NCBI GenBank assembly: GCA_034722015.1
Contig: JAYENI010000207.1
Location: 1-56,895 of the forward strand
Length of the DNA stretch: 56,895 nucleotides
Source of the DNA: Pseudomonadota bacterium
GTDB taxonomy: Bacteria; Pseudomonadota; Gammaproteobacteria; JAJDOJ01
Reading direction: 5' to 3'
This document shows, piece by piece, positions 21,916-56,895 of the stretch (the first letter of the stretch is position 1; each line of letters opens with the position of its first letter). The position numbers and the translations under genes are program-made. The notes beneath the pieces were generated by a model that saw only the letters and a program-made list of their open reading frames with translations, did not search any database and had not been told where the DNA came from.

Positions 21916-23063
21916 GGTTGCAGCGCCTTGTCCAGCGCGGCCAGCATTCTCAGGTTCTGCGCCCGTGTCCCCACGGTGATGCGCAGATGGTCGGGAAATC
22001 CGTAGTTCGCCACGGGGCGGACGATGACACCCTCGCGCAGCATGGTGTCGTACACCGGCAGGGCCTCGCGGCCGACGTCGACGCATATAAAGTTCGCCAC
22101 CGAGGGAATGAGGTCCAGTCCACGTTCGCCGAATGCGCTCGCGAGCATCGCCAGGCCATCGTCGTTGACCCCCCGGCTCTTCTCCAGATGCGCGCCGTCC
22201 CCCAGCGCGGCCCGGGCGGCGTCCTGCGCCAGCAGATTGACGTTGAACGGTTGACGCACCCGGTTCAGCAGTTCCGCCACACCAGGATGCGACAGGCCGT
22301 ATCCGACCCGCAGGCCCGCGAGACCGAAAATCTTTGAAAAGGTACGCGTCACGACCAGTCTTGGAAAGCGCTCCAGCCAGGTCGAGGTGTCCGGGTAGTC
22401 CGGCTCGCTCACATACTCCGCGTAGGCCTCGTCCACCACGCAGATAACGTGCGAGGGAAGCGACCCGACAAAATCCTGCAACGTATCCGAGGTGAGCCAG
22501 GTCCCCGTTGGATTGTTGGGGTTCGCGACAAAGACAAGACGCGTGTCGCGATCGACCCGGCGATAGAGATTTTCGAGGTGGTGCCCATACGGCATTGCCG
22601 CGTCCGGCGAATGCGGGGCCGCGACACGCGAGGCCGCGCCGGTGGCGGTCGTCACGATGGGGTAGACCGCGAAGGCGTGCGCCGAATACACCGCCGCCTT
22701 GCCCGGCGAGAGAAAGGTCCGTGCCAGCAGTTCCAGGATGTCATTGGACCCGTTGCCGATCGTCACGCAGTCCATCGACAGGCCATGTCGCCGCGCGATG
22801 GCCTCCTTGAGCGCGAAGCCGTTGCCGTCCGGGTAAAACGAGACCGCATCCAGTCGATCGCGCATCGCGGCCACCGCCAGCGGGCTCGGTCCCAGCGGGT
22901 TCTCGTTGGACGCAAGCTTGACCGAGTCCCGGATACCCAGTTCCTTTTCCAGGGTCTCCACCGGCTTGCCGGGTTCGTAGGGTCTCAGGCGCCGGACACC
23001 CTCGACCGCAAGGTGGGCGACCGCCGCGGGTCCAAAATCTTTCAAAGATGTAGATGCTGTCAT
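21912..23063 (-). CDS. hisC: Histidinol-phosphate aminotransferase
   Basis: YEPGKP, KLASNENPLG, GNGSND, NPNNPTG, DEAY and RTFSKIFGLAGLRVGY. Confidence 0.95.
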   Translation of the reverse strand: MTASTSLKDFGPAAVAHLAVEGVRRLRPYEPGKPVETLEKELGIRDSVKLASNENPLGPSPLAVAAMRDRLDAVSFYPDGNGFALKEAIARRHGLSMDCVTIGNGSNDILELLARTFLSPGKAAVYSAHAFAVYPIVTTATGAASRVAAPHSPDAAMPYGHHLENLYRRVDRDTRLVFVANPNNPTGTWLTSDTLQDFVGSLPSHVICVVDEAYAEYVSEPDYPDTSTWLERFPRLVVTRTFSKIFGLAGLRVGYGLSHPGVAELLNRVRQPFNVNLLAQDAARAALGDGAHLEKSRGVNDDGLAMLASAFGERGLDLIPSVANFICVDVGREALPVYDTMLREGVIVRPVANYGFPDHLRITVGTRAQNLRMLAALDKALQP

Positions 23064-46567: not shown

Positions 46568-48412
46568 ATGGCCACTCCAGTAGAGAAATCCAGTGACAAG
46601 ATCATCGGACGTGCCTTCCGTCGATCCCTCCTGACGATCGTCATGATCATACTGCTATCCGGCGGCGCCATTCTGTGGGTGAAAAAAACCGCTGAGACCC
46701 CGGAGTCGGGCGTAGAGGCGACGATCTCCGGTCCCACTTTGATGGCGTCACGGGTGTCTCGCCCCCCCCCCGGAGTCGTCTTCACGGACATCACCGCAAC
46801 CTCGGGTGTCGACTTCGTCCACGTCAACGGCGCTACCGGTGAAAAACTGCTGCCAGAAACCATGGGTGGGGGTGTCGCGTTCCTTGACGTCGACATCGAC
46901 GGGGACCAGGACCTGTTCCTGGTCAATTCCATGCCCTGGACTGGCGACCCGACCGACGGCGCCGCCACCTCGGCCCTGTACCGCAATGATGGCACAGGTT
47001 CATTTGAAAATGTCACGCGTCAGGCCGGGCTGGATCTGACACTCTACGGCATGGGTGTGGCCGCGGGCGACTATGACAACGACGGTGACCAAGACCTCTT
47101 TGTCACCGCAGTCGGTAAAAACCGGTTGCTGCGCAACGACGGCGGCGTGTTTCAGGACGTCACGGATATCGCGGGCGTGGCGGGAGACCCCGCGGAATGG
47201 AGTACGTCGGCCGCATTCGTCGATTACGACAACGACGGCGATCTGGACCTGTTCGTCGCCAACTACGTGCGCTGGTCCCGGGACATCGACTTGGAGATCG
47301 ACTTCAGGCTGACCGGAATCGGGCGCGCCTATGGTCCCCCCACCACATTTGAGGGACGCCACCCCTATCTCTACGCAAACAACGGTGACGGCACCTTCTC
47401 CGACGTGTCGGACAGCTCAGGTGTGCAGATTGCCAACGCGGCGACCGGGGCCCCGATGGGCAAGGCGCTGGGCATCTCCCCCATGGACGTCAATCGGGAC
47501 GGCCGGATCGATCTGTTCGTCGCCAATGACACGGTCAGAAACTTCCTGCTGCTCAACCGGGGTGACGGTGGATTCGACGAGACCGGCGTGACAATGGGCG
47601 TCTCGTTCGATCGCAACGGCAGCGCCACCGGGGCGATGGGAACCGATACGGCATACTACCGCGATGATGGCGAACTGGGTCTGGCCGTCGGCAACTTCGC
47701 CAACGAGATGACGTCCCTTTACGTCACACAGGGTGGCGACGGACAGTTTGCTGACGAGGCCATCGGCGACGGAATCGGCCCGGCCTCACGCAGGGCGCTG
47801 ACGTTCGGACTGTTCTTCTTCGACTACGACCTCGACGGTCGGCTCGATCTCCTCCAGGCCAATGGACACCTGGAGGACGAAATCAATGTCGTACAGCCCA
47901 GTCAGCACTACGCCCAGCCGGCGCAGCTGTTCTGGAACTGCGGTCCGGAATGTCCGGCGACCTTTGTCGTGGTACCGGGGGATTCCAGTGGCGATCTGGG
48001 CACGCCGGTCGTCGGGCGCGGCGCGAGTTTCGCGGACATCGATGGTGACGGCGATCTTGATGTCGTCATTACGCAGACCGGGGGACGGCCGCTGCTGCTT
48101 CGCAACGACCAGGCGACAGGACACCACTGGTTGCGGATCGTGCCGGCCGGGCGCACCGTCAATCGAGACGCGATCGGCACCTGGGTCGAGGTGACGGCAA
48201 ACGGCAGGACGCAGACCCGTCAGCTCATGCCGACCCGGAGTTACCTTTCACAATCGGAGCGCGTCGTCACCTTTGGCCTCGGCGCGGCCGCCGTGGCGGA
48301 TGAGGTACGCGTCCTGTGGTCGGATGGCTCGGAACAGCGCATCGGCCCCGTTGATGCGAACCAGACGCTGCATATCAGGCAGGAAACGGATCAGGGAGAC
48401 ACAGCAAGTTGA
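46568..48412 (+). CDS. CRTAC1-like FG-GAP repeat/ASPIC-UnbV protein, N-terminally anchored
   Basis: ETMGGGVAFLDVDIDGDQDL, repeated DxDxDGxxD motifs, C-terminal GRTVNRDAIG...RSYLSQ...VTFGLG. Confidence 0.88.
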   Translation: MATPVEKSSDKIIGRAFRRSLLTIVMIILLSGGAILWVKKTAETPESGVEATISGPTLMASRVSRPPPGVVFTDITATSGVDFVHVNGATGEKLLPETMGGGVAFLDVDIDGDQDLFLVNSMPWTGDPTDGAATSALYRNDGTGSFENVTRQAGLDLTLYGMGVAAGDYDNDGDQDLFVTAVGKNRLLRNDGGVFQDVTDIAGVAGDPAEWSTSAAFVDYDNDGDLDLFVANYVRWSRDIDLEIDFRLTGIGRAYGPPTTFEGRHPYLYANNGDGTFSDVSDSSGVQIANAATGAPMGKALGISPMDVNRDGRIDLFVANDTVRNFLLLNRGDGGFDETGVTMGVSFDRNGSATGAMGTDTAYYRDDGELGLAVGNFANEMTSLYVTQGGDGQFADEAIGDGIGPASRRALTFGLFFFDYDLDGRLDLLQANGHLEDEINVVQPSQHYAQPAQLFWNCGPECPATFVVVPGDSSGDLGTPVVGRGASFADIDGDGDLDVVITQTGGRPLLLRNDQATGHHWLRIVPAGRTVNRDAIGTWVEVTANGRTQTRQLMPTRSYLSQSERVVTFGLGAAAVADEVRVLWSDGSEQRIGPVDANQTLHIRQETDQGDTAS

Positions 48413-50166
48413 AACAAGGTAGAACCCACGGGTGGCGAGCGGTGGCGGTACTGGCCATCTTGTTGCCGCCAATGGCCATCGCGGCCACCCAGACGTTCGA
48501 GGACCGCGCGGCCGACACGGGCCTCACGTTCGAATACTTCAACGGGATGTTCGGCGAGTTCTACTTCGTCGAGAACATCGGCGGTGGCGTGGCGCTGCTC
48601 GACTTCGACAACGACGGCGATCTCGACGTCTACCTGACACAGGGGCATATGCTCGGAAAAGGAAAGACCTTCGCGGATGCGTCGTACCCACCACCGGACG
48701 GTCTCGAACTGAACGACCGGCTTTTCCGCAACGATCTCGTCGTCGGCAGGGACGGAAAACCGCAGCTGCGTTTCACCGACGTGACGCGCGAAGCGGGACT
48801 GGACGTGCGCGACTACGGCATGGGAGTCTCCGCCGCGGACTACGACAACGACGGAAACACGGACCTGTTCGTCACGAGCTGGGGGCAAAACCGGCTGCTG
48901 CGAAATCTCGGCAACGGAAAATTCGCCGACGTCACTGCCAGGACCGGACTCGGGGCCGAAGGCTGGGGCGTGAGTGCCGCGTTCCTGGACTATGACCGGG
49001 ACGGAAACCTCGACCTCTATGTCGGCAATTACGTCGTCTTCGACCCGGAGAAAAACAAGGCGTGCTTCGCGCTGAACGGGGCGCAAGACTATTGCGCCCC
49101 CCAGTTCTACGAAGCGATCGGCGACCGGCTCTACCGCAATCGGGGGGACGGTACCTTCGAGGACGCGACCGCTGCCGCCGGCATCGACAAGGCGACTGCC
49201 CCCGGACTCGGGGTCATTGCCGCGGATTTCAATGGTGACGGCTGGACCGACGTCTACGTTGCCAACGACGGTCGCCCGAATCAGCTCTGGATCAACCAGA
49301 AAAACGCAAGCTTCAAGGACGACGCCTTTCTGGCCGGAGTGGCGGTGAACATGGAAGGCGCCCCGGAGGCGAGTATGGGGGTCGACGCGGCGGATTTCGA
49401 CGCAGACGGTGACGAGGACCTCTTCATGACGCACCTCCTCGGTGAAACCAACACGATCTACGTCAACGACGGCCAGGGCTGGTTCGAAGACCGCACTCCG
49501 GCGACCGGGCTCGGCGCCCCCAGCAAGGGATTCACCTCCTTCGGCACGATCTGGTTCGACTACGACAACGACGGCTGGCTCGACCTGTTCATCGCCAACG
49601 GCGAGGTGCGGGTGATGCCGATCCTGGCCCGATCCGGGGACAAGTATCCCCTGCGTCAGCCGAACCAGCTGTTTCGCAGTCTCGGCAACGGAAAATTCGA
49701 GGAAGTCACGGCGAACGCCGGGGACGTCTTCGGTCTGTCCGAGGTCAGCCGCGGTGCTGCAATGGGCGACATCGACAACGATGGTGATCTCGATATCGTT
49801 GTAGCCAACAGCAACGGCCCGACCCGTCTCCTGATCAACAACATCGGCAACGAAAATCCCTGGATCGGGTTCCGGTTGCTGGATTCGAGGGGGCGCGATG
49901 CCATCGGCGCCAACATCGAGATCACCAGAAAAAGGGCGGGGCCGCTGCACCGCCGGGTCCGGACGGACGGCAGTTACGCGTCGGCGAATTCACCCCGCGT
50001 GCTCGTCGGACTTGGCAAGGATCCCGAAATCGAGCGCGTGACGGTGCACTGGCCGAGCGGCCGGACAGAATCCTGGCGCAGTCTGTCTACCGGCCGATTC
50101 CACACCCTGGCAGAAGGAGAGGGACGGGCGGCGGATACGAAGGATGACCCGGCGAGGTCTGGTTAA
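48409..50166 (+). CDS. CRTAC1-like FG-GAP repeat/ASPIC-UnbV protein with signal peptide
   Basis: ENIGGGVALLDFDNDGDLD, repeated DYDNDG motifs, SRGAAMGDIDNDGDLD and DAIGA...GSYASANS; TTG start overlapping the upstream stop. Confidence 0.88.
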   Translation: MKQGRTHGWRAVAVLAILLPPMAIAATQTFEDRAADTGLTFEYFNGMFGEFYFVENIGGGVALLDFDNDGDLDVYLTQGHMLGKGKTFADASYPPPDGLELNDRLFRNDLVVGRDGKPQLRFTDVTREAGLDVRDYGMGVSAADYDNDGNTDLFVTSWGQNRLLRNLGNGKFADVTARTGLGAEGWGVSAAFLDYDRDGNLDLYVGNYVVFDPEKNKACFALNGAQDYCAPQFYEAIGDRLYRNRGDGTFEDATAAAGIDKATAPGLGVIAADFNGDGWTDVYVANDGRPNQLWINQKNASFKDDAFLAGVAVNMEGAPEASMGVDAADFDADGDEDLFMTHLLGETNTIYVNDGQGWFEDRTPATGLGAPSKGFTSFGTIWFDYDNDGWLDLFIANGEVRVMPILARSGDKYPLRQPNQLFRSLGNGKFEEVTANAGDVFGLSEVSRGAAMGDIDNDGDLDIVVANSNGPTRLLINNIGNENPWIGFRLLDSRGRDAIGANIEITRKRAGPLHRRVRTDGSYASANSPRVLVGLGKDPEIERVTVHWPSGRTESWRSLSTGRFHTLAEGEGRAADTKDDPARSG

Positions 50167-50170
50167 CGGC

Positions 50171-51931
50171 ATGGCAAAGTTATTTATGATTCGGACACCT
50201 TCCATACTTCACCGGAAAATCGTCGTGAGACTGCCGGACCGGTCGAGTCGGGTCCTTCCGGCGCTCCTCGCGGTGTGCCTGTGGGCACCATTCCCGGCCC
50301 AATCGTTACCCGGTGCAGAACCCCTTTCGGTTCCCGTTACCGTCACAACAGACGGAAAGACGATTCATCTCGAGGCGCTGCCCACACCCGACCTGTCCGA
50401 GACCGAGGAGGCAGTCAGACAGACCCTCGAGGAAACACGCCGGAGTCTCGCCGCGCTGACCCGCGGAGAGTCCGATGCGGGCAAACTCGCGTCGGCATGG
50501 GGACGCCTCGGCGAGTTGTATCACGCCCACCACATCTACATCCCCGCGGACCCGGCATACGCCAACGCCGGCTCGCTGGATCCCGGGAATCCCCGCTGGC
50601 CCTACCTTCGGGCCTGGCTGGCCGAGAAGACCACGCGTTCCGATGACGCCATCCGGTACTACAACCAGGTGCTGGAACTCGATCCCGATCACGAGCACGC
50701 CCGACTGCGACTCGCGTTGGTCTACCTCGACGTCAATCAGACCGACAAGGCGAGGCCGCTGCTGGAGAAACCCTTCACGACCCCCGGCATGGACGCCGCG
50801 GTCCAGTTCGCGCTTGGCAGGATGGCATTGCAGGAACATGACTATGAACGTGCGGCCGGGATGCTGGAACGGGTGCTGGAATTACAGCCTCACGCCTCAC
50901 GCGCCTATTCCCCACTTGGCATGGCCTACCGCGGTATGGGAGATGTCGAAGGGGCACGGCGCGCACTTTCCCTTTACGGGGACGGCAAACCAAAGATCCC
51001 GGACCCCGTGACAGACGATCTCGACGCCCTGCTGACCGGGGGCCGCACCCAGTTTCACAGGGGGCTCGTCGGGATCCAGGAAGGTCGCTATGACATCGCC
51101 GCGGCGGCATTCGGCGACGCCGCGGCAGCGAACCCGGAAAATGTCAATGTACGAGTGAGTTACGCCCGCGCGCTGTACCTCGACGGCAGGAAAGACGCCG
51201 GCCGCGGGGAACTGGAGGCGGCACTGGAGCAGGACCCCGACCACGCACTCGCAAACTTTCTTTACGGCGTACTACTGGCCGGGGACGGTCAAGAGGAGGA
51301 GGCGGTTTCCCGATTGGAGAAGACTCTCTCTCGTGAACCGGAACACTCGGGCGCGCACCATTTCCTGGGAAACGTCATGATGGAAACCGGCGACTATGGC
51401 GCCGCGGCGCGGCACTACGAAGCGGCCGTGCGCGCAACGCCCATGGACAACGTCGCCCGCGCCCTGGGCGCCATGGCGCTGTTGCGCTCGGGGGCCCCGC
51501 ACGCACGCGCGGTGGCGCTCCTCGAAGAGGCGCACGGGGCCGACCCGGGGAATCCCTTCTTCACCTATACACTGGCCTGGCTGCTCGCAGGCAGCCCGGA
51601 TGCAGGCGTTCGAGACGGGCCACGAGCACTCGCGCTGGCCGAGGCGCTGATCGAGCGGCAGGACGATCCCGGAAACGCCGAGGTCCTGGCCATGGCCCTC
51701 GCGGAGACCGGTCAGTATGACGAGGCCGAATCGCTACAATCGCGCGTCATCACGTCAGCCTTCCAGGGCGGACGGTTTGACATCGCACCCCGATTACAGC
51801 GCTGTCTGGAGTCCTACAGAAGCGCGCAGGGCTGCCATCACATCTGGCCCGAGAACGACCCTGTCTACCGCGCGCCTCCGCTCGACCCAAGCGGGCCGTT
51901 CAGGGACTATCCCACGATCGATCCCTACTAA
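50171..51931 (+). CDS. Exported multi-TPR protein
   Basis: Hydrophobic N-terminus, many TPR-like repeats (e.g. AIRYYNQVLELDPDHEHARLRLA); start uncertain (50144/50171/50225). Confidence 0.82.
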   Translation: MAKLFMIRTPSILHRKIVVRLPDRSSRVLPALLAVCLWAPFPAQSLPGAEPLSVPVTVTTDGKTIHLEALPTPDLSETEEAVRQTLEETRRSLAALTRGESDAGKLASAWGRLGELYHAHHIYIPADPAYANAGSLDPGNPRWPYLRAWLAEKTTRSDDAIRYYNQVLELDPDHEHARLRLALVYLDVNQTDKARPLLEKPFTTPGMDAAVQFALGRMALQEHDYERAAGMLERVLELQPHASRAYSPLGMAYRGMGDVEGARRALSLYGDGKPKIPDPVTDDLDALLTGGRTQFHRGLVGIQEGRYDIAAAAFGDAAAANPENVNVRVSYARALYLDGRKDAGRGELEAALEQDPDHALANFLYGVLLAGDGQEEEAVSRLEKTLSREPEHSGAHHFLGNVMMETGDYGAAARHYEAAVRATPMDNVARALGAMALLRSGAPHARAVALLEEAHGADPGNPFFTYTLAWLLAGSPDAGVRDGPRALALAEALIERQDDPGNAEVLAMALAETGQYDEAESLQSRVITSAFQGGRFDIAPRLQRCLESYRSAQGCHHIWPENDPVYRAPPLDPSGPFRDYPTIDPY

Positions 51932-51962
51932 GGCGATTTCTGTCAAATCACATACCATCTTG
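51932..51962 (-). repeat. Terminal fragment of the MITE at the TPR gene stop codon
   Basis: TAA-GGCGATTTCTGTCAAATCACATACCATCTTG is identical to the corresponding end of copy 4. Confidence 0.8.
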
Positions 51963-52031
51963 ATGAACGAGATAACTGCCAGGCAACACGGGAAGACGCC
52001 ATCGAGGCGACGCTGCGTGCATCTGCCCGGC

Positions 52032-55000
52032 ATGCGTTTCCTGCAATTTCCGCTACTTGCCCTGTTCGTTCTGCTCGCCGCTCTCGGCGGTTGTTCGCGG
52101 GACGAGGGGGCCTACGAAGAGGTGTCGGCACAGCATTTTCCCACCGGTTCCCGCCTGGATCCGGATGTCGTTGCGGCGAACAACCTCGGTGTCGGCCTGA
52201 TGGGCCAGTTCGATTATGCCGGCGCACAAAATGTCTTTTCGGAACTCCTCGAACGTCACCCGGAACTCGAGGAGGTCAAGGTCAACCTGGCCATCGCGAC
52301 CCTGAATCGCCAGGATGAAGGCGACGAGCAGACCGCCCTGGAGATCGTGGACCAGGTCATAGCCAACCACCCCGCCCAACTGCGTGCCCACTACGTCGCC
52401 GGACTGCTACGCCTCTATATGGCCACGCCGGAGACCGCCCTGGCACATTTCCGTACCATCAGCGAGGCCGACCCCCGGGACGCTTATGCCGCCTACTACC
52501 TCGGGCAAACACTGGCGCAGACCGGGGAACACGAAACCGCCGTCCTCCGGTATCGTGAGGCGCTGGACATCGACCCCTATCTGCGGAGTGCCTACTATGG
52601 CGCTTTCCAGGCCCTTCGGCGCCTGCGACGGGCCGAAGAGGCCAGGGTGCTGATCGACGCCTATCAGCGTCTGGCCGACAATCCACGGGCCCGCCTCGCT
52701 GAATTCAAGTACACGCGAATGGGACCAAAGGCCGAGGCACTGGCCTTCGGTGACGCCGGGAGTACCCCTTCGCCGCACCCGAAAGGCCCCCTCTTCTCGC
52801 AACCTGTCGAGGTCTCAAGCCAGCGGGTTCGTGCCACCGGCGATCCGCAGCGTCACGCCGGCGTAAATGCCGCCGACGTAGACGGTGACGGACGCATCGA
52901 TCTTTTTCTCTCCGGTCGCCGCAGTGCCTCCGGGACCTTCAACACCCTGCTATCGGGGCTGGAGGATACCGGAACCCCGAAGGTGAAAGAATTTCCGCCA
53001 GACTCCATCGACGGTGTTAATGCCAGTGTGTGGGGCGACATCGACAACGACGGCCTGATCGACGTGTATCTACTTCGAAACGGACAGAACCAGCTCTGGC
53101 GCCAGGTCCGTCAGGGCGAGTGGCAAAACATTACCCTGGACTCAGGCACCTCGGCAGGCGATTCAGACTCCGTAGACGGCGCAATGTTCGATGCCGACCA
53201 CGACGGCGACCTCGATGTCTTCATCGTGAACGCGGACGGTCCCAACGAATTGCTGAACAACAACCGGGACGGGACCTTCCGGCCGATAGCGACTGACAGC
53301 GGCGTCGCGGGACCCGGCACCGGATCACGGCAGGTCCTGCCGATCGACCTCGATAACGATCGTGACGTCGATCTGGTCGTACTCAACACGAAGGCCCCGC
53401 ACGACGTCTATCTCAACGACCGGCTGTGGAGTTACCACCAGGCCGTGGGATTCGACCGGTTTCGCGACTCGCCGGCAATCGCCGTGATCGGCGCCGATCG
53501 GGACACCGACGGTCACGCGGAACTCTACACACTCGCCCCTGAAGGCGAGGTGTTGCGATGGCAGCAGCGCACCGACGATTCCTGGGCATCGCAATCCTTC
53601 GGCGAGGTGAAGGCACCGGCAAAGACATGGGGCCAGCTGGCGGCATTCGACGCCGACGGAGACGGCACACCGGACATCCTGGCGGCCACCACCGAGGGGT
53701 GGATTATCCTGGGTACGGGTGCCAACCCGTTTGTGTTCGTCGCAGAGCCCGGCGACCGGCTGACAGGAGTCACCCCCCTGCTCACCAAATCCACCCGGGG
53801 ATACTCGATCGCCGCTGTCTCGGCATCCGGCAGGGTCAACCTATGGCGCCCCGGTGACGGGCGCTACCCGTTCCTGACGATGCGCTTCAGCGGCAAGGAA
53901 GACAAGGCCAACTCGATGCGCTCGAATGCCTCCGGCATCGGGACCACGGTGACGGTCCGCAGTGGCGATCGATGGGCGGTTGTTGACACGTGGCGATTGA
54001 TCTCGGGACCGGGCCAGGGTCTCCAGCCGGTGGCAATCGGGCTTGGCGGCGCACAGGCCGCGGATTTCGTCGAGATCGACTGGTCCGACGGCGTCTTTCA
54101 GAGCGAACTCGCCCTGAAACCGGGCACCGAGCACCTCATCACCGAAACCCAGCGGCAACTCTCGAGTTGCCCGGTGCTGTTTGCCTGGAATGGCGAGCAA
54201 TTCGGGTTCGTGAGCGACCTGCTGGGTGTCGGTGGCATCGGCTACGCGGTCGGACCCGGGGAATACAGCGAACCCCGACCATGGGAAAATTTTCTCCTCC
54301 CGCCCGGCTCGATCAGGCCCCGCGACGGTCGCCTGGCGCTCAAGATCGCGGAACCCATGGAGGAAGCCGCGTACCTGGATGCCGCGAGACTGATTGCGTT
54401 CGACATGCCCCCGGGCTGGCGCATGGCGCTGGACGAGCGGTTACACACCGGCGGGCCGGAGCCCACCGGCACGCCGATTTTCTATCGCCACGAGAGTCTC
54501 CCTGCAGCAGCAACCAACGAACGGGGTGAAGACGTCCTCGCAACGCTCAGGGAAAGAGACGGCGTGGCGGCGCCGGTCGGCGAACTGGACGACCGGTTTA
54601 TCGGCAGGCTGGCCGGAGAACACGTCCTGACACTGGAGTTTCCCGCGGCACTCGAACGTCGGGGCACCGAAGCGGTACTGGTTGCCGATGGCTGGGTGGA
54701 GTATCCCTATTCGCAAACCAACTTCGCGGCCTGGCAAGCCGGCGCCACCTTCGATCCGCCGACCATCGAGGCCCGCGGCCGCGACGGTGCATGGCGGGTG
54801 GTCCTTCGCGGTTTCGGTTATCCCGCGGGGATGCCCAGAAGGATGTCGGTTCCTCTGGCCGATCTACCACCCGGGACCAACGGGCTGAGAATTCGCTCGA
54901 ACATGGAAGTCTACTGGGACAGGATTGCGGTCGCCTGGGTTGAACCGCTGACCTCGGCCCGGCGATCGGATCTTGAGCTTCTCGAGGGCCGGGTTGCGGC

Positions 55001-55388
55001 CACCGGGTTTGCGCGAAGGACGACATTTGCCCAGCGCCGACCATGGTACGACTACCGGGACCGAGCCCCCTTTTGGGACACCCGCTACCTCGCCGGCAAC
55101 TACACGCGCTTTGGTCCCGCGCCCGCACTGGTGAGCGAGGTCGACGACGCTGTGGCGATCATCGGCCCCGGAGAGGAGATCCACCTCGAGTTTGCCGCAC
55201 CGGAATTACCGGTCGAACCGGGCTGGTCGAGGCAGTATGTCCTGGAAACCAACGGCTGGGCCAAGGACATGGACCTCTACACCCGTGACGGGGATACCCT
55301 GGGGCCGCTTCCCGGGAGTGGAAAACCGGCCGCCCCCAGGGAGCGGCTGCACGATCGCTACAACACACGCTATCTGGCGGGACGATGA
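52032..55388 (+). CDS. Large lipoprotein: TPRs, FG-GAP repeats, ASPIC-UnbV-like region and an unassigned C-terminal domain
   Basis: MRFLQFPLLALFVLLAALGGC lipobox-type leader; TPRs; DxDxDG repeats; RSNASGIG; about 400-aa tail starting SSCPVLFAWNG. Confidence 0.85.
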   Translation: MRFLQFPLLALFVLLAALGGCSRDEGAYEEVSAQHFPTGSRLDPDVVAANNLGVGLMGQFDYAGAQNVFSELLERHPELEEVKVNLAIATLNRQDEGDEQTALEIVDQVIANHPAQLRAHYVAGLLRLYMATPETALAHFRTISEADPRDAYAAYYLGQTLAQTGEHETAVLRYREALDIDPYLRSAYYGAFQALRRLRRAEEARVLIDAYQRLADNPRARLAEFKYTRMGPKAEALAFGDAGSTPSPHPKGPLFSQPVEVSSQRVRATGDPQRHAGVNAADVDGDGRIDLFLSGRRSASGTFNTLLSGLEDTGTPKVKEFPPDSIDGVNASVWGDIDNDGLIDVYLLRNGQNQLWRQVRQGEWQNITLDSGTSAGDSDSVDGAMFDADHDGDLDVFIVNADGPNELLNNNRDGTFRPIATDSGVAGPGTGSRQVLPIDLDNDRDVDLVVLNTKAPHDVYLNDRLWSYHQAVGFDRFRDSPAIAVIGADRDTDGHAELYTLAPEGEVLRWQQRTDDSWASQSFGEVKAPAKTWGQLAAFDADGDGTPDILAATTEGWIILGTGANPFVFVAEPGDRLTGVTPLLTKSTRGYSIAAVSASGRVNLWRPGDGRYPFLTMRFSGKEDKANSMRSNASGIGTTVTVRSGDRWAVVDTWRLISGPGQGLQPVAIGLGGAQAADFVEIDWSDGVFQSELALKPGTEHLITETQRQLSSCPVLFAWNGEQFGFVSDLLGVGGIGYAVGPGEYSEPRPWENFLLPPGSIRPRDGRLALKIAEPMEEAAYLDAARLIAFDMPPGWRMALDERLHTGGPEPTGTPIFYRHESLPAAATNERGEDVLATLRERDGVAAPVGELDDRFIGRLAGEHVLTLEFPAALERRGTEAVLVADGWVEYPYSQTNFAAWQAGATFDPPTIEARGRDGAWRVVLRGFGYPAGMPRRMSVPLADLPPGTNGLRIRSNMEVYWDRIAVAWVEPLTSARRSDLELLEGRVAATGFARRTTFAQRRPWYDYRDRAPFWDTRYLAGNYTRFGPAPALVSEVDDAVAIIGPGEEIHLEFAAPELPVEPGWSRQYVLETNGWAKDMDLYTRDGDTLGPLPGSGKPAAPRERLHDRYNTRYLAGR

Positions 55389-56392
55389 TCACCCGCCTCG
55401 CCGACGATACGGGTGATCGTGGCCTGGCTGGTGTCCAGGATACCGACTTCGGATAACCGCGGCAGCAATTCACGCCAGACCGGTTCGCGAGCAAAGACAT
55501 CCCCGAACAGCGGCAGTGACTCGCCGGTCCTCCCTGCGTTGACCAGGGACACGGCGTGCCAGAACTTCATCTCCACATTATCGGGAAACATCGACTCGGC
55601 CCGACCGTATTCCTCGAGTGCCGCATCTACATTGCCCGCCTCGATGGCAAGGTCGCCACGATTCATGTGATTGTATGCCCGTTGAAGGCGCAGCAATCGC
55701 CCCAGTTCCTCGAGGGGACTGGGGTGGTCCTCCACATGCAGGTCGACGATGCGTTGTTCGAGCGGATGCCCGGTGGATCTGCCCCCCACGATCAGCATGG
55801 CCGCGGATTGACGCCCGCGCAGGTCCCCGCCATGTCGCTGCGCCGCTTCGAGCGCGGCCAGCATGCGCTCGGCCAGGCCGCCATTCGCCTGCGTGAATGC
55901 ACTGGCCATTTCCTCGGGTACGCCAGGGTTCAGCATCAGGTTTGCCTGGACACTGAAACCCTGACCCACCAGGTGGCCCGCGTACTGAATGCACCGTTCC
56001 CCGGTGTGCGCAGCGACATTCCCGTTCCCGTCGATGATCGCCACCTGCCGGACCTCCGGATGGGGATCCATCTTCACAATGGCATCAAGCGCCTGCCGTG
56101 CGGTCCAGTCGGCACGCATCAGATCCAGCGCGGAGGCCCCATACCTCGGCTCGATAAAGGACTGCGTCGCGACGGCACCGACCCCCGGTTCCGCCCAGAT
56201 CACCAGCGAACCGACTGCGAACCAGTGTGACTGCACGGCGACACCGAGTCGACCCGTCTCCGGGTCGCGCGCAACGATAGAGTAGGTATATACAGGTCGT
56301 CCACCGAACCCGCTACGATCCAGGGTGACCGATTGGGACATGGCCGCGGGCACCGTCAGACTCACGATCAGGACTGCCAGTAGTTGCCTCAT
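55370..56392 (-). CDS. DUF1028-family (Ntn-hydrolase-like) exported protein with C-terminal TPR
   Basis: Signal peptide, then TYSIVARDPETGRLGVAVQSHWFAVG, GAVATQS and GGDLRGRQSAA. Confidence 0.85.
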   Translation of the reverse strand: MRQLLAVLIVSLTVPAAMSQSVTLDRSGFGGRPVYTYSIVARDPETGRLGVAVQSHWFAVGSLVIWAEPGVGAVATQSFIEPRYGASALDLMRADWTARQALDAIVKMDPHPEVRQVAIIDGNGNVAAHTGERCIQYAGHLVGQGFSVQANLMLNPGVPEEMASAFTQANGGLAERMLAALEAAQRHGGDLRGRQSAAMLIVGGRSTGHPLEQRIVDLHVEDHPSPLEELGRLLRLQRAYNHMNRGDLAIEAGNVDAALEEYGRAESMFPDNVEMKFWHAVSLVNAGRTGESLPLFGDVFAREPVWRELLPRLSEVGILDTSQATITRIVGEAGDHRPAR

Positions 56393-56644
56393 GCGTTGTT
56401 TTCCTTTCCGGGTAGACGAGAAGGGTTGTGCGGATCAGCCACGCGGGCGCCCGTCTCACCCGATTCAACAGACGATGGATTCCAGGCGTCGGATTCACCA
56501 ACACTCCACGGCATTTTTTGTTCGTTCGTCTCCAACGAGATCTTCCATTCGGCACAGGGCCGTTCCTGTCGCCCGCAAACCAGGACCTGATTTTCCTTTG
56601 CGTGTCATTTGGTTACATGTAATTCTCTGAAAAACCACAAAGGT

Positions 56645-56660
56645 TGGCATGCATTCTGCA
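56645..56660 (+). promoter_or_regulatory. Sigma54-type -24/-12 promoter
   Basis: TGGCATGCATTCTGCA: GG at 56646-56647, 10 nt, GC at 56658-56659; 75 bp upstream of an ORF with an AGGAG RBS. Confidence 0.65.
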
Positions 56661-56735
56661 TTATTCAAGCCATGGACGGATAATCGTTCATAAACCTTGA
56701 ACGCACAGATCTCATTCGAACCAGGAGAACACATC

Positions 56736-56895
56736 ATGTTGAACATCAAAGACCTCGCAGACAGCAAGACCCTCGACCGCGACGCCATGGCCGCAGTCGC
56801 CGGCGGCTCCGGCTACGGTTTCCCCGGCTTCCCCTTCAAGGAAGTCTACAAACTCGACCAGCGCTCGTTCGACGTCAACGTCGAGGTCCTGCAGG
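56736..56895 (+). CDS. Small exported protein/peptide precursor with a double-glycine-type leader (runs off the window end)
   Basis: Manual translation MLNIKDLADSKTLDRDAMAAVAGG-SGYGFPGFPFKEVYKLDQRSFDVNVEVLQ...; AGGAG at 56723-56727; absent from the supplied ORF track. Confidence 0.75.
   Translation, partial: MLNIKDLADSKTLDRDAMAAVAGGSGYGFPGFPFKEVYKLDQRSFDVNVEVLQ

Follow-up and report, generated by a model that had tools for sequence, protein, structure and literature searches.

The stretch of DNA analyzed here (the window) is the entire contig C207, 56,895 nucleotides (nt) long, of a brine metagenome-assembled genome (MAG) that we call G000 (4.46 Mb, 297 contigs, 61% GC). At its right-hand end lies the beginning of a small gene that an earlier note, made from the sequence alone, had proposed to be the first gene of a secreted-peptide locus continuing beyond the window; synteny and a set of partner genes now support the main part of this proposal. 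Specifically, the open reading frame (ORF) is confirmed as a real small gene, predicted to encode a precursor with a cleavable export leader, and we think it probable that this is the sigma-54-driven first gene of a conserved peptide-export island.

The features read in the earlier note (a GG-N10-GC promoter, an AGGAG ribosome-binding site and an ORF with a double-glycine, or GG, leader) are all present on the plus strand. The sigma-54 promoter TGGCATGCATTCTGCA occupies 56645–56660, with TGGCAT as its −24 and CTGCA as its −12 element, and its GG (56646–56647) and GC (56658–56659) are separated by exactly ten nucleotides. The ribosome-binding site (56723–56727) lies 8 nt 5′ of the ATG at 56736, and CAGGAG is nearly invariant in an alignment of 15 upstream regions. 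The 24-codon leader, MLNIKDLADSKTLDRDAMAAVAGG (56736–56807), is followed by the first 29 codons of the mature core, SGYGFPGFPFKEVYKLDQRSFDVNVEVLQ (56808–56895), and the contig end removes another ~41 codons. The ORF had been described as open-ended; it is instead truncated by an assembly repeat. The final 127 nt of the window are identical to the end of contig C61, which carries a second copy of the gene with a better promoter (TGGCACGCATTCTGCA), and in the source metagenome (brine) a 266-nt unitig reaches 43 nt further than the window, with a depth roughly double that of its flanks. The truncation therefore arises because this two-copy repeat breaks the assembly, and does not reflect biology. 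Complete paralogues show how the protein ends, as does protein P0014 from one of the close-relative clusters described below: only 3 of the 53 residues present in the window deviate in it, and its sequence provides the C-terminus that the window lacks (...GNTQSLVNTINNANQSAFGHSPKVYSDPSQTANNSSTINIG). The predicted precursor has ~94 amino acids (aa), a 24-aa leader plus a ~70-aa core.

The leader ends in AGG and has hydrophobic residues at V21 (−4), M18 (−7) and L13 (−12), with Ser at −15 and Leu at −18; the GG is invariant in 101 aligned family members, and AlphaFold places a helix at residues 15–21. The core had been called rich in glycine and aromatic residues, a description that fits its first ~10 residues only. 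Across the complete paralogues and P0014, the full core is rich in N, Q, S and T (31–39%), hydrophilic (grand average of hydropathy ~ −0.55) and Cys-free, with no hydrophobic or Gly/Ala-rich segment. Two AlphaFold models (mean predicted local distance difference test score, pLDDT, 69 and 71) give the core a pLDDT of 71–89 without intramolecular secondary structure. Searches of Pfam and NCBIfam with the window fragment, the complete paralogues and ten distant members returned nothing meaningful (in Pfam, no match at E ≤ 1 for 13 members), and a Foldseek comparison of the model with the PDB gave 0 matches. Neither a Sec signal peptide nor curlin or Fap repeats occur in the family members.

The paralogous precursors that the earlier note had suggested looking for are present: tblastn and a hidden Markov model (HMM) of the leader yielded eight assembled GG-leader genes in G000, and a read end indicates a ninth. 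Six of the eight belong to the window's family; those on C207 and C61 are truncated, and those on C149, C6, C131 and C46 are complete, at 92–95 aa. The remaining two encode a distinct peptide (C132) and a short, basic-core peptide (C6). Each family copy has the −24/−12 element, then a conserved inverted repeat, then CAGGAG, and the four complete ones end in a stem-loop/T-run terminator; because they have a promoter and a terminator of their own, the complete units look monocistronic. Among the six copies, dN/dS is 0.05–0.30, which indicates purifying selection. The leader is the most constrained segment (dN/dS 0–0.26), the C-terminal core is constrained as well, and the N-terminal core is the most variable (dN/dS up to 0.55). 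Close relatives form 20 clusters among 5.8 billion proteins, mostly on contigs shorter than 2 kb, and an exhaustive profile search gave 168 clusters of 85–100-aa proteins that share the layout M..L.IKDL...ELD..AM.AVRGG + ...Q.Q...NNGNN.AF...V.PTQ.A.NN...; family members are annotated ‘hypothetical’ throughout. An alignment scan of named genomes for the close family gave no match, because at that identity the family is genus-restricted.

Relatives of the window gene are transcribed in nature. Four metatranscriptomes from salt-marsh or marine sediment contain contigs 85–95% identical to the coding sequence, and the neighboring 8.7 kb are essentially uncovered. One RNA contig of 707 nt runs from 72 nt 5′ of the ATG to 474 nt beyond the window end; its length equals that of gene 1, spacer and gene 2 in L016, a metagenome relative described below.

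Promoter and upstream control elements

The window promoter agrees with the pattern TGGCACG-N4-TTGCW at 10 of its 12 specified positions, and we accept it as real because it is conserved across copies of the gene, not because of the match score alone. Taken by itself, the match does not exceed chance: the window holds 2 matches at ≤1 mismatch where 0.98 are expected, and 23 of 100 shuffles reach that count. The −24/−12 element lies 76–92 nt 5′ of the ATG in 6 of 6 family copies of G000, and 63 nt 5′ of it in the C132 peptide gene. In the 15 aligned upstream regions, which come from two genomes and metagenome contigs and were gathered through protein similarity and not DNA similarity, TGGCA and TGC are invariant (15/15). 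A score of at least 10/12 is reached by only 0.45% of random 130-nt windows of G000, and 48 of 50 peptide-bearing loci in named beta- and gammaproteobacteria have at least one peptide gene with a promoter of this quality. As a positive control, the promoter scan of G000 recovers a PII (glnK-like) gene on C170; such genes are classic sigma-54 targets. The genome encodes rpoN (contig C213) and seven true bacterial enhancer-binding proteins (bEBPs), one of them within the export locus. The window also holds a second sigma-54-like match with one mismatch, TGGCACGGACCTTTCT, at 22711–22726 on the minus strand.

Further upstream, CCAACA (56498–56503, plus strand; −147 from the −24 element) is a candidate for one half of the upstream sequence bound by the activator, and CCAAC (56532–56536, plus strand), ~34 nt 3′ of the first, is a second candidate. 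A two-site spacing of 31–37 nt is likewise found in the C61, C46, C149 and C132 copies, and 6 of 7 G000 copies have a half-site between −97 and −147. In 77 promoters from the 80 related loci introduced below, CCAACA/TGTTGG half-sites concentrate at −150 to −120, often arranged as TGTTGG-N7-CCAACA; at least one occurs in 68 of the 77 promoters and at least two in 32, compared with 1.0 in shuffled sequences. We infer that this motif is a candidate upstream activator site. Closer to the promoter, a T-tract is followed by a site resembling that of integration host factor (IHF), TGTCATTTGGTTA at 56603–56615, the two together spanning 56590–56615 on the plus strand. An IHF-like sequence (WATCAR-N4-TTR with at most one mismatch) occurs between −75 and −15 from the promoter, roughly 30–50 nt before it, in 9 of the 15 copies, compared with 0.76 in shuffles.

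An inverted repeat, CATGGACGG-ATAA-TCGTTCAT (56671–56692, plus strand), begins at about the predicted transcription start. Across the 15 copies, 92% of its stem cells are paired, compared with 13–46% in slid controls. The substitutions are all one-sided, between G•U and A-U or between G•U and G-C, shuffled sequences score equally, and the window's own repeat folds no better than shuffled sequence (z-score 0.21). With no two-sided compensatory changes and no advantage over shuffles, we reject for now the idea of a proven RNA structure; the repeat may act as a 5′ stem in the RNA or as an operator in the DNA. An Rfam search of the promoter and 5′-UTR region returned only noise.

The export island and its distribution

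Both a C39 peptidase/transporter and a sigma-54 activator, which the earlier note had suggested seeking downstream, are encoded on contig C132. There the distinct GG-leader gene (gene 3, or g3; 99 aa), with its own TGGCCCG-N4-GTGC promoter, is convergent to an operon. This operon encodes the activator, a bEBP of 421 aa without a recognized sensory domain (C132:964–2229), and a peptidase-containing ABC transporter (PCAT) of 1016 aa (C132:2226–5276), in which two cyclic nucleotide monophosphate (cNMP)-binding domains are combined with a C39 domain and an ABC exporter. The C39 domain matches PF03412 at 1.7e-39, and its DCGAACL, HYIVVYG and VADPG motifs are readable. The operon further encodes, all on the one strand, a PpiC-like protein (249 aa, with a weak TIGR04500 match), an HlyD-family adaptor (459 aa) and a membrane protein with two FHA domains (812 aa) that weakly matches the TagH model. 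In addition, contig C6 carries genes for a Ser/Thr kinase, a protein with VWA, transmembrane (TM) and FHA segments and a PP2C phosphatase, together with the basic-core GG peptide and a paralogue of the window gene. A −24/−12 site, TGGCACGCGTCGTGCT (C6:15500–15515, 11/12), lies between the VWA-FHA and PP2C genes, and the basic-core peptide gene follows that for PP2C; this suggests that the signaling genes on C6 may themselves be in the sigma-54 regulon.

Synteny indicates that the core locus is ordered as gene 1 (g1, the window copy), gene 2 (g2), gene 3 and then the convergent operon. A chain of positional orthologues leads from the window to contig C74 of the sister genome G001, and on to L035 and L016. 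In G001, where the gene lies at the end of C74, the upstream neighbor is that of the window (77% identity to 54342–55501), and the copy is 88–92% identical to L035 and L016; in L035, ~220 nt separate an ASPIC/UnbV gene from the promoter and gene 1 that follow it. In the metagenome relatives, the window-type gene precedes g2, a distantly homologous GG-leader gene ending in ...LRSYF. In L016, g2 is followed by repeats resembling repetitive extragenic palindromic (REP) sequences and then by an orthologue of the C132 peptide, and L016:904–966 matches the REP stretch at C132:176–237. One source-metagenome contig runs into C132 at position ~90; its sequence there, ...GCTACTTCTAG, translates as S-Y-F-stop, the ending of gene 2. 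Finally, the gammaproteobacterial MAG L065 has g1 with promoter, g2, g3 with promoter, and the bEBP. From the orthology chain, the REP match, the SYF-stop ending and the arrangement in L065, the likely layout is the end of C207, the rest of gene 1, gene 2, the REP-like repeats and C132. Between the ASPIC/UnbV gene and the peptide promoter, the window has a 340-aa gene on the minus strand (55370–56392); because it is absent from this position in G001 C74 and in L035, where the gap is ~220–240 nt, we regard it as a local insertion.

The island extends well beyond this genome. Using the PpiC-like protein as a marker, we found at least 176 loci in named genomes, at ~58–66% identity. The carriers include Cupriavidus (necator, basilensis, pinatubonensis and others), Ralstonia pickettii, Noviherbaspirillum, Massilia, Pseudoduganella, Herbaspirillum, Aromatoleum, Rhodocyclaceae and gammaproteobacterial MAGs, among them Thiohalobacterales. 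In the best 80 of the 176 loci, chosen by the PpiC-like marker alone, PCAT is present in 77 (median identity 74%), the bEBP in 70 (70%) and PP2C in 48, and 50 of these loci contain 210 GG-leader ORFs. We sorted the peptides into classes with HMMs built from the cores only. The window family, g1, has 102 genes in 37 loci, 45 of them with their own promoter of at least 10/12; at the same threshold, g2 has 29 genes in 20 loci (none with its own promoter), g3 has 38 genes in 38 loci (21) and the basic-core class has 20 genes in 20 loci (2). The g3 and basic-core peptides therefore occur exactly once per locus where they occur, and g3 is the peptide gene closest to the bEBP in most loci. In a sample of 401 genomes of the class, 5 have the PpiC-like marker, and full-length g1 is found only in G000, G001 and G147, all with the marker; the sister genus lacks both. 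From this co-occurrence of g1 and marker, the island is patchy and behaves as a unit. PCAT and bEBP are 70–74% identical between a brine gammaproteobacterium and soil betaproteobacteria, and the island is missing from the sister genus, which suggests that the whole island may have moved by horizontal transfer.

Repeats surround several of these genes. A repeat of ~165 nt that resembles a miniature inverted-repeat transposable element (MITE), with terminal inverted repeats AAATGACATACCA...TGGTATGTCATTT (for example, C149:5508–5672), gives 396 blastn high-scoring segment pairs on 187 of the 297 G000 contigs and adjoins several peptide copies; it probably explains the fragmented assembly of G000. 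A MITE fragment at ~51926–51962 is the only other high-depth stretch of 48000–56895 in the metatranscriptomes, and because the long ORF called from 51717 includes it in its 5′ part, the start of that ORF is probably mis-called. G-rich REP-like repeats (GGGGGAAGGTTGGGATGGGGGTGGGCG...) flank peptide genes at C132:1–450, 5′ of the C149 copy and at L016:900–1000, with a word depth of 100–570 in the source metagenome compared with 27 for unique sequence. A separate candidate system lies at C164:319–3284 of G000, where small Sec-signal proteins sharing the post-signal motif LTEAQMDNVNAG / LTQHQMDTVTASG are encoded beside a C39-like peptidase of 242 aa that has a membrane/signal segment at its N-terminus.

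Proposed mechanism and function

In the regulation and export that we propose, sigma-54 RNA polymerase would bind the −24/−12 element and be activated by the island's own bEBP, which probably binds CCAACA/TGTTGG ~100–150 nt upstream while IHF bends the DNA between. The same bEBP would drive the dispersed satellite copies, all of which have the same promoter module. The leader helix would be recognized by the cytoplasmic C39 domain of the transporter and cut after Gly24, and the core would then be exported via the transporter, the HlyD adaptor and a TolC-type channel. The cytoplasmic PpiC-like protein is probably a chaperone, and the two cNMP domains, the double-FHA protein, the C6 Ser/Thr kinase, the VWA-FHA protein and PP2C probably gate secretion or the activity of the activator.

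Several observations weigh against this explanation. The window's own IHF-like site carries 2 mismatches and is a weaker example. RNA contigs of relatives start 72 and 110 nt 5′ of the ATG, compared with ~65 predicted, and others start within the 5′ UTR, although contigs cannot map starts. The join from C207 across a gap to C132 is unassembled, and the twin contig C61, which ends at the same base, may be the continuing copy; because of this twin, and because the REP repeat at the start of C132 also occurs elsewhere, the read-end evidence is suggestive only. The outer-membrane pore that the earlier note had suggested seeking downstream is missing from the assembled part of the locus, as is any outer-membrane factor gene, and TolC-type genes are found only elsewhere in G000; no CsgG or FapF pore gene was seen on C132 or C6, the two contigs to which that inspection was confined. 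Cleavage, export and activator binding, for their part, are deduced from what is known of the families involved.

Our leading reading of the function, held tentatively, is that the core, abundant and encoded in multiple copies, forms the major component of an extracellular material that self-assembles and is built together with g2, g3 and the basic-core peptide. We favor it because the core is hydrophilic, N/Q/S/T-rich and Cys-free, no immunity gene is adjacent, the copy numbers follow a major/minor logic, expression is apparently high, and the AlphaFold models have neither intramolecular secondary structure nor a match in the PDB. On these grounds, a self-assembling secreted component seems likelier than a microcin-like toxin, and amyloid-like self-assembly of the product is possible. 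Set against this reading, the two AlphaFold models show no beta structure and no globular fold, the sequence resembles neither curli nor Fap nor any other known fibre protein, and immunity might be encoded elsewhere despite the missing adjacent gene. Taken further, the island might be an undescribed beta- and gammaproteobacterial extracellular assembly system, in which the PCAT secretes g1 as major subunit with g2, g3 and basic-core partners, to form an amyloid-like or fibre/matrix material licensed by sigma-54, the activator, a kinase-FHA-PP2C switch and nucleotide sensing on the transporter; we regard this fuller picture as possible but speculative.

That the peptides are class II microcin-like bacteriocins, toxins against competitors whose many paralogues would make up an arsenal controlled by sigma-54 and a kinase, is unlikely but ranks second. 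A GG leader, a mature size below 10 kDa and a PCAT with an HlyD-family partner are the defining features of class II microcin export (PMC12219008), several paralogues per genome are typical of bacteriocin loci, the N-terminal core is the most variable segment, and the sole match in a PDB profile search, at the level of the leader only, is carnobacteriocin B2 (E = 0.38). However, the small membrane immunity gene that adjoins validated microcins (PMC12219008) is missing at 4 of 4 complete copies: within 1.2 kb of these no consistent TM-containing ORF is found, and the neighbors all differ. Nor does the hydrophilic core, lacking a hydrophobic or Gly/Ala-rich segment, resemble such toxins, and three or four peptide classes conserved with a fixed copy-number logic from beta- to gammaproteobacteria, under purifying selection, are unlike fast-diversifying strain-specific toxins.

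We find it improbable that the peptides are cell-to-cell signals, sensed via the kinase/FHA/PP2C module and feeding back on the activator. The single-copy g3 and basic-core peptides do adjoin the bEBP and PP2C, the bEBP has no recognized sensory domain, the linked genes include those for a kinase, FHA proteins and PP2C, and one promoter type common to all peptide genes fits an autoinduction loop. A 70-aa, multi-copy and apparently highly transcribed product, however, exceeds known peptide pheromones by far in both size and abundance, and no receptor was identified; the idea would apply more readily to g3 or the basic-core peptide than to g1, the family of the window gene.

The earlier note's own suggestions, a Fap-type amyloid system or a substrate of the neighboring cytochrome/ASPIC envelope cluster, are very doubtful. 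The composition is N/Q-rich, as in curli-type subunits, and the gene adjoins an ASPIC/UnbV gene in the window, G001 and L035, yet the family has neither Sec signal nor curlin or Fap repeats, and the processing peptidase is a cytoplasmic domain of an ABC exporter and not a periplasmic FapD-like protein. The ASPIC adjacency is confined to close relatives and is interrupted in the window by the inserted 340-aa gene; elsewhere among the taxa, the peptide genes accompany the PCAT island, which holds their own exporter, and not ASPIC genes. No finding ties the peptide to the envelope cluster as a substrate. A chance ORF behind a chance promoter at a contig end, for which only the lack of enrichment of the promoter pattern speaks, is excluded for practical purposes by the conservation of promoter, ribosome-binding site, leader and core in hundreds of sequences, by purifying selection and by transcription of relatives.

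Comparison with known systems

We found no description of the island or its peptides in the literature (searches combined sigma-54 with double-glycine, C39 with cNMP, FHA and HlyD, and Cupriavidus). In the libraries searched, neither a curated family nor a solved structure corresponds to any of its three or four conserved cargo families, whose composition suggests a non-killing role. Because cultured carriers exist (Cupriavidus, Ralstonia, Massilia, Noviherbaspirillum, Aromatoleum), the island offers a defined regulon open to genetics. For annotation, the family is systematically missed or called hypothetical, and its copies break assemblies.

Nearest to the island among known systems are class II microcin export, the cNMP-PCAT HetC and the NHLP/TIGR04500 cassettes, all compared below. 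Like curli (CsgA/CsgB) and Fap, the system combines small, N/Q-rich, presumably secreted proteins with a logic of major and minor paralogues; it differs from them in its export route and in having neither a Sec signal nor repeats, and amyloid formation is purely hypothetical here. In the control of type VI secretion by threonine phosphorylation (PpkA/PppA/Fha1-TagH), a Ser/Thr kinase, a PP2C phosphatase and FHA proteins are likewise linked to a secretion machine; in contrast, the machine here is a type I/PCAT exporter, and no type VI genes are involved. Gram-positive Blp, Pln and Com are pheromone-controlled regulons of GG peptides, and the island resembles them in having one exporter for many scattered GG-leader genes with a shared type of regulated promoter. 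Unlike them, it uses a sigma-54 activator with a Ser/Thr kinase/FHA/PP2C module in place of a histidine kinase and response regulator, and it has no immunity genes. The exporter, adaptor and PpiC-like protein match the TIGR03796 and TIGR03794 models of NHLP/Nif11-type export cassettes and the TIGR04500 model of a PpiC-related ‘peptide maturation’ protein with scores below the curated cut-offs (556 vs 853, 61 vs 156 and 91 vs 180 bits), whereas the precursors match no NHLP or Nif11 leader family in NCBIfam or Pfam, and there are no modifying enzymes.

To our knowledge, PCAT export of double-glycine peptides in Gram-negatives is known almost solely from enterobacterial microcins. The same export principle appears here embedded in a conserved island with its own activator, a recognizable promoter and candidate upstream-activator-sequence code, a kinase/FHA/PP2C module and a probably cNMP-gated transporter. 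Class II microcins such as microcin V (CvaC, with CvaA/CvaB/TolC) share with it the GG leader, an unmodified peptide below 10 kDa, and a C39-ABC exporter with an HlyD-family adaptor and, presumably, a TolC-type channel encoded elsewhere. The island is unlike them in lacking an adjacent immunity gene, in its hydrophilic N/Q/S/T-rich core and in its sigma-54 and bEBP transcription, as well as in the two cNMP domains on the exporter, the added PpiC-like, double-FHA, PP2C and kinase proteins, and peptide classes that are conserved across orders.

A parallel to the transporter itself is HetC of Nostoc PCC 7120, in which a cNMP domain precedes an active C39 domain and an ABC exporter; this domain binds ppGpp and is needed for function, and HetC has one such domain, no nearby adaptor gene and no known substrate (PMC10986499). 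The island's PCAT is a further cNMP-C39-ABC fusion in a Gram-negative, and, unlike HetC, it is accompanied by candidate GG-leader substrates encoded alongside. These peptides provide candidate substrates for the poorly understood class of cNMP-PCATs to which HetC belongs.

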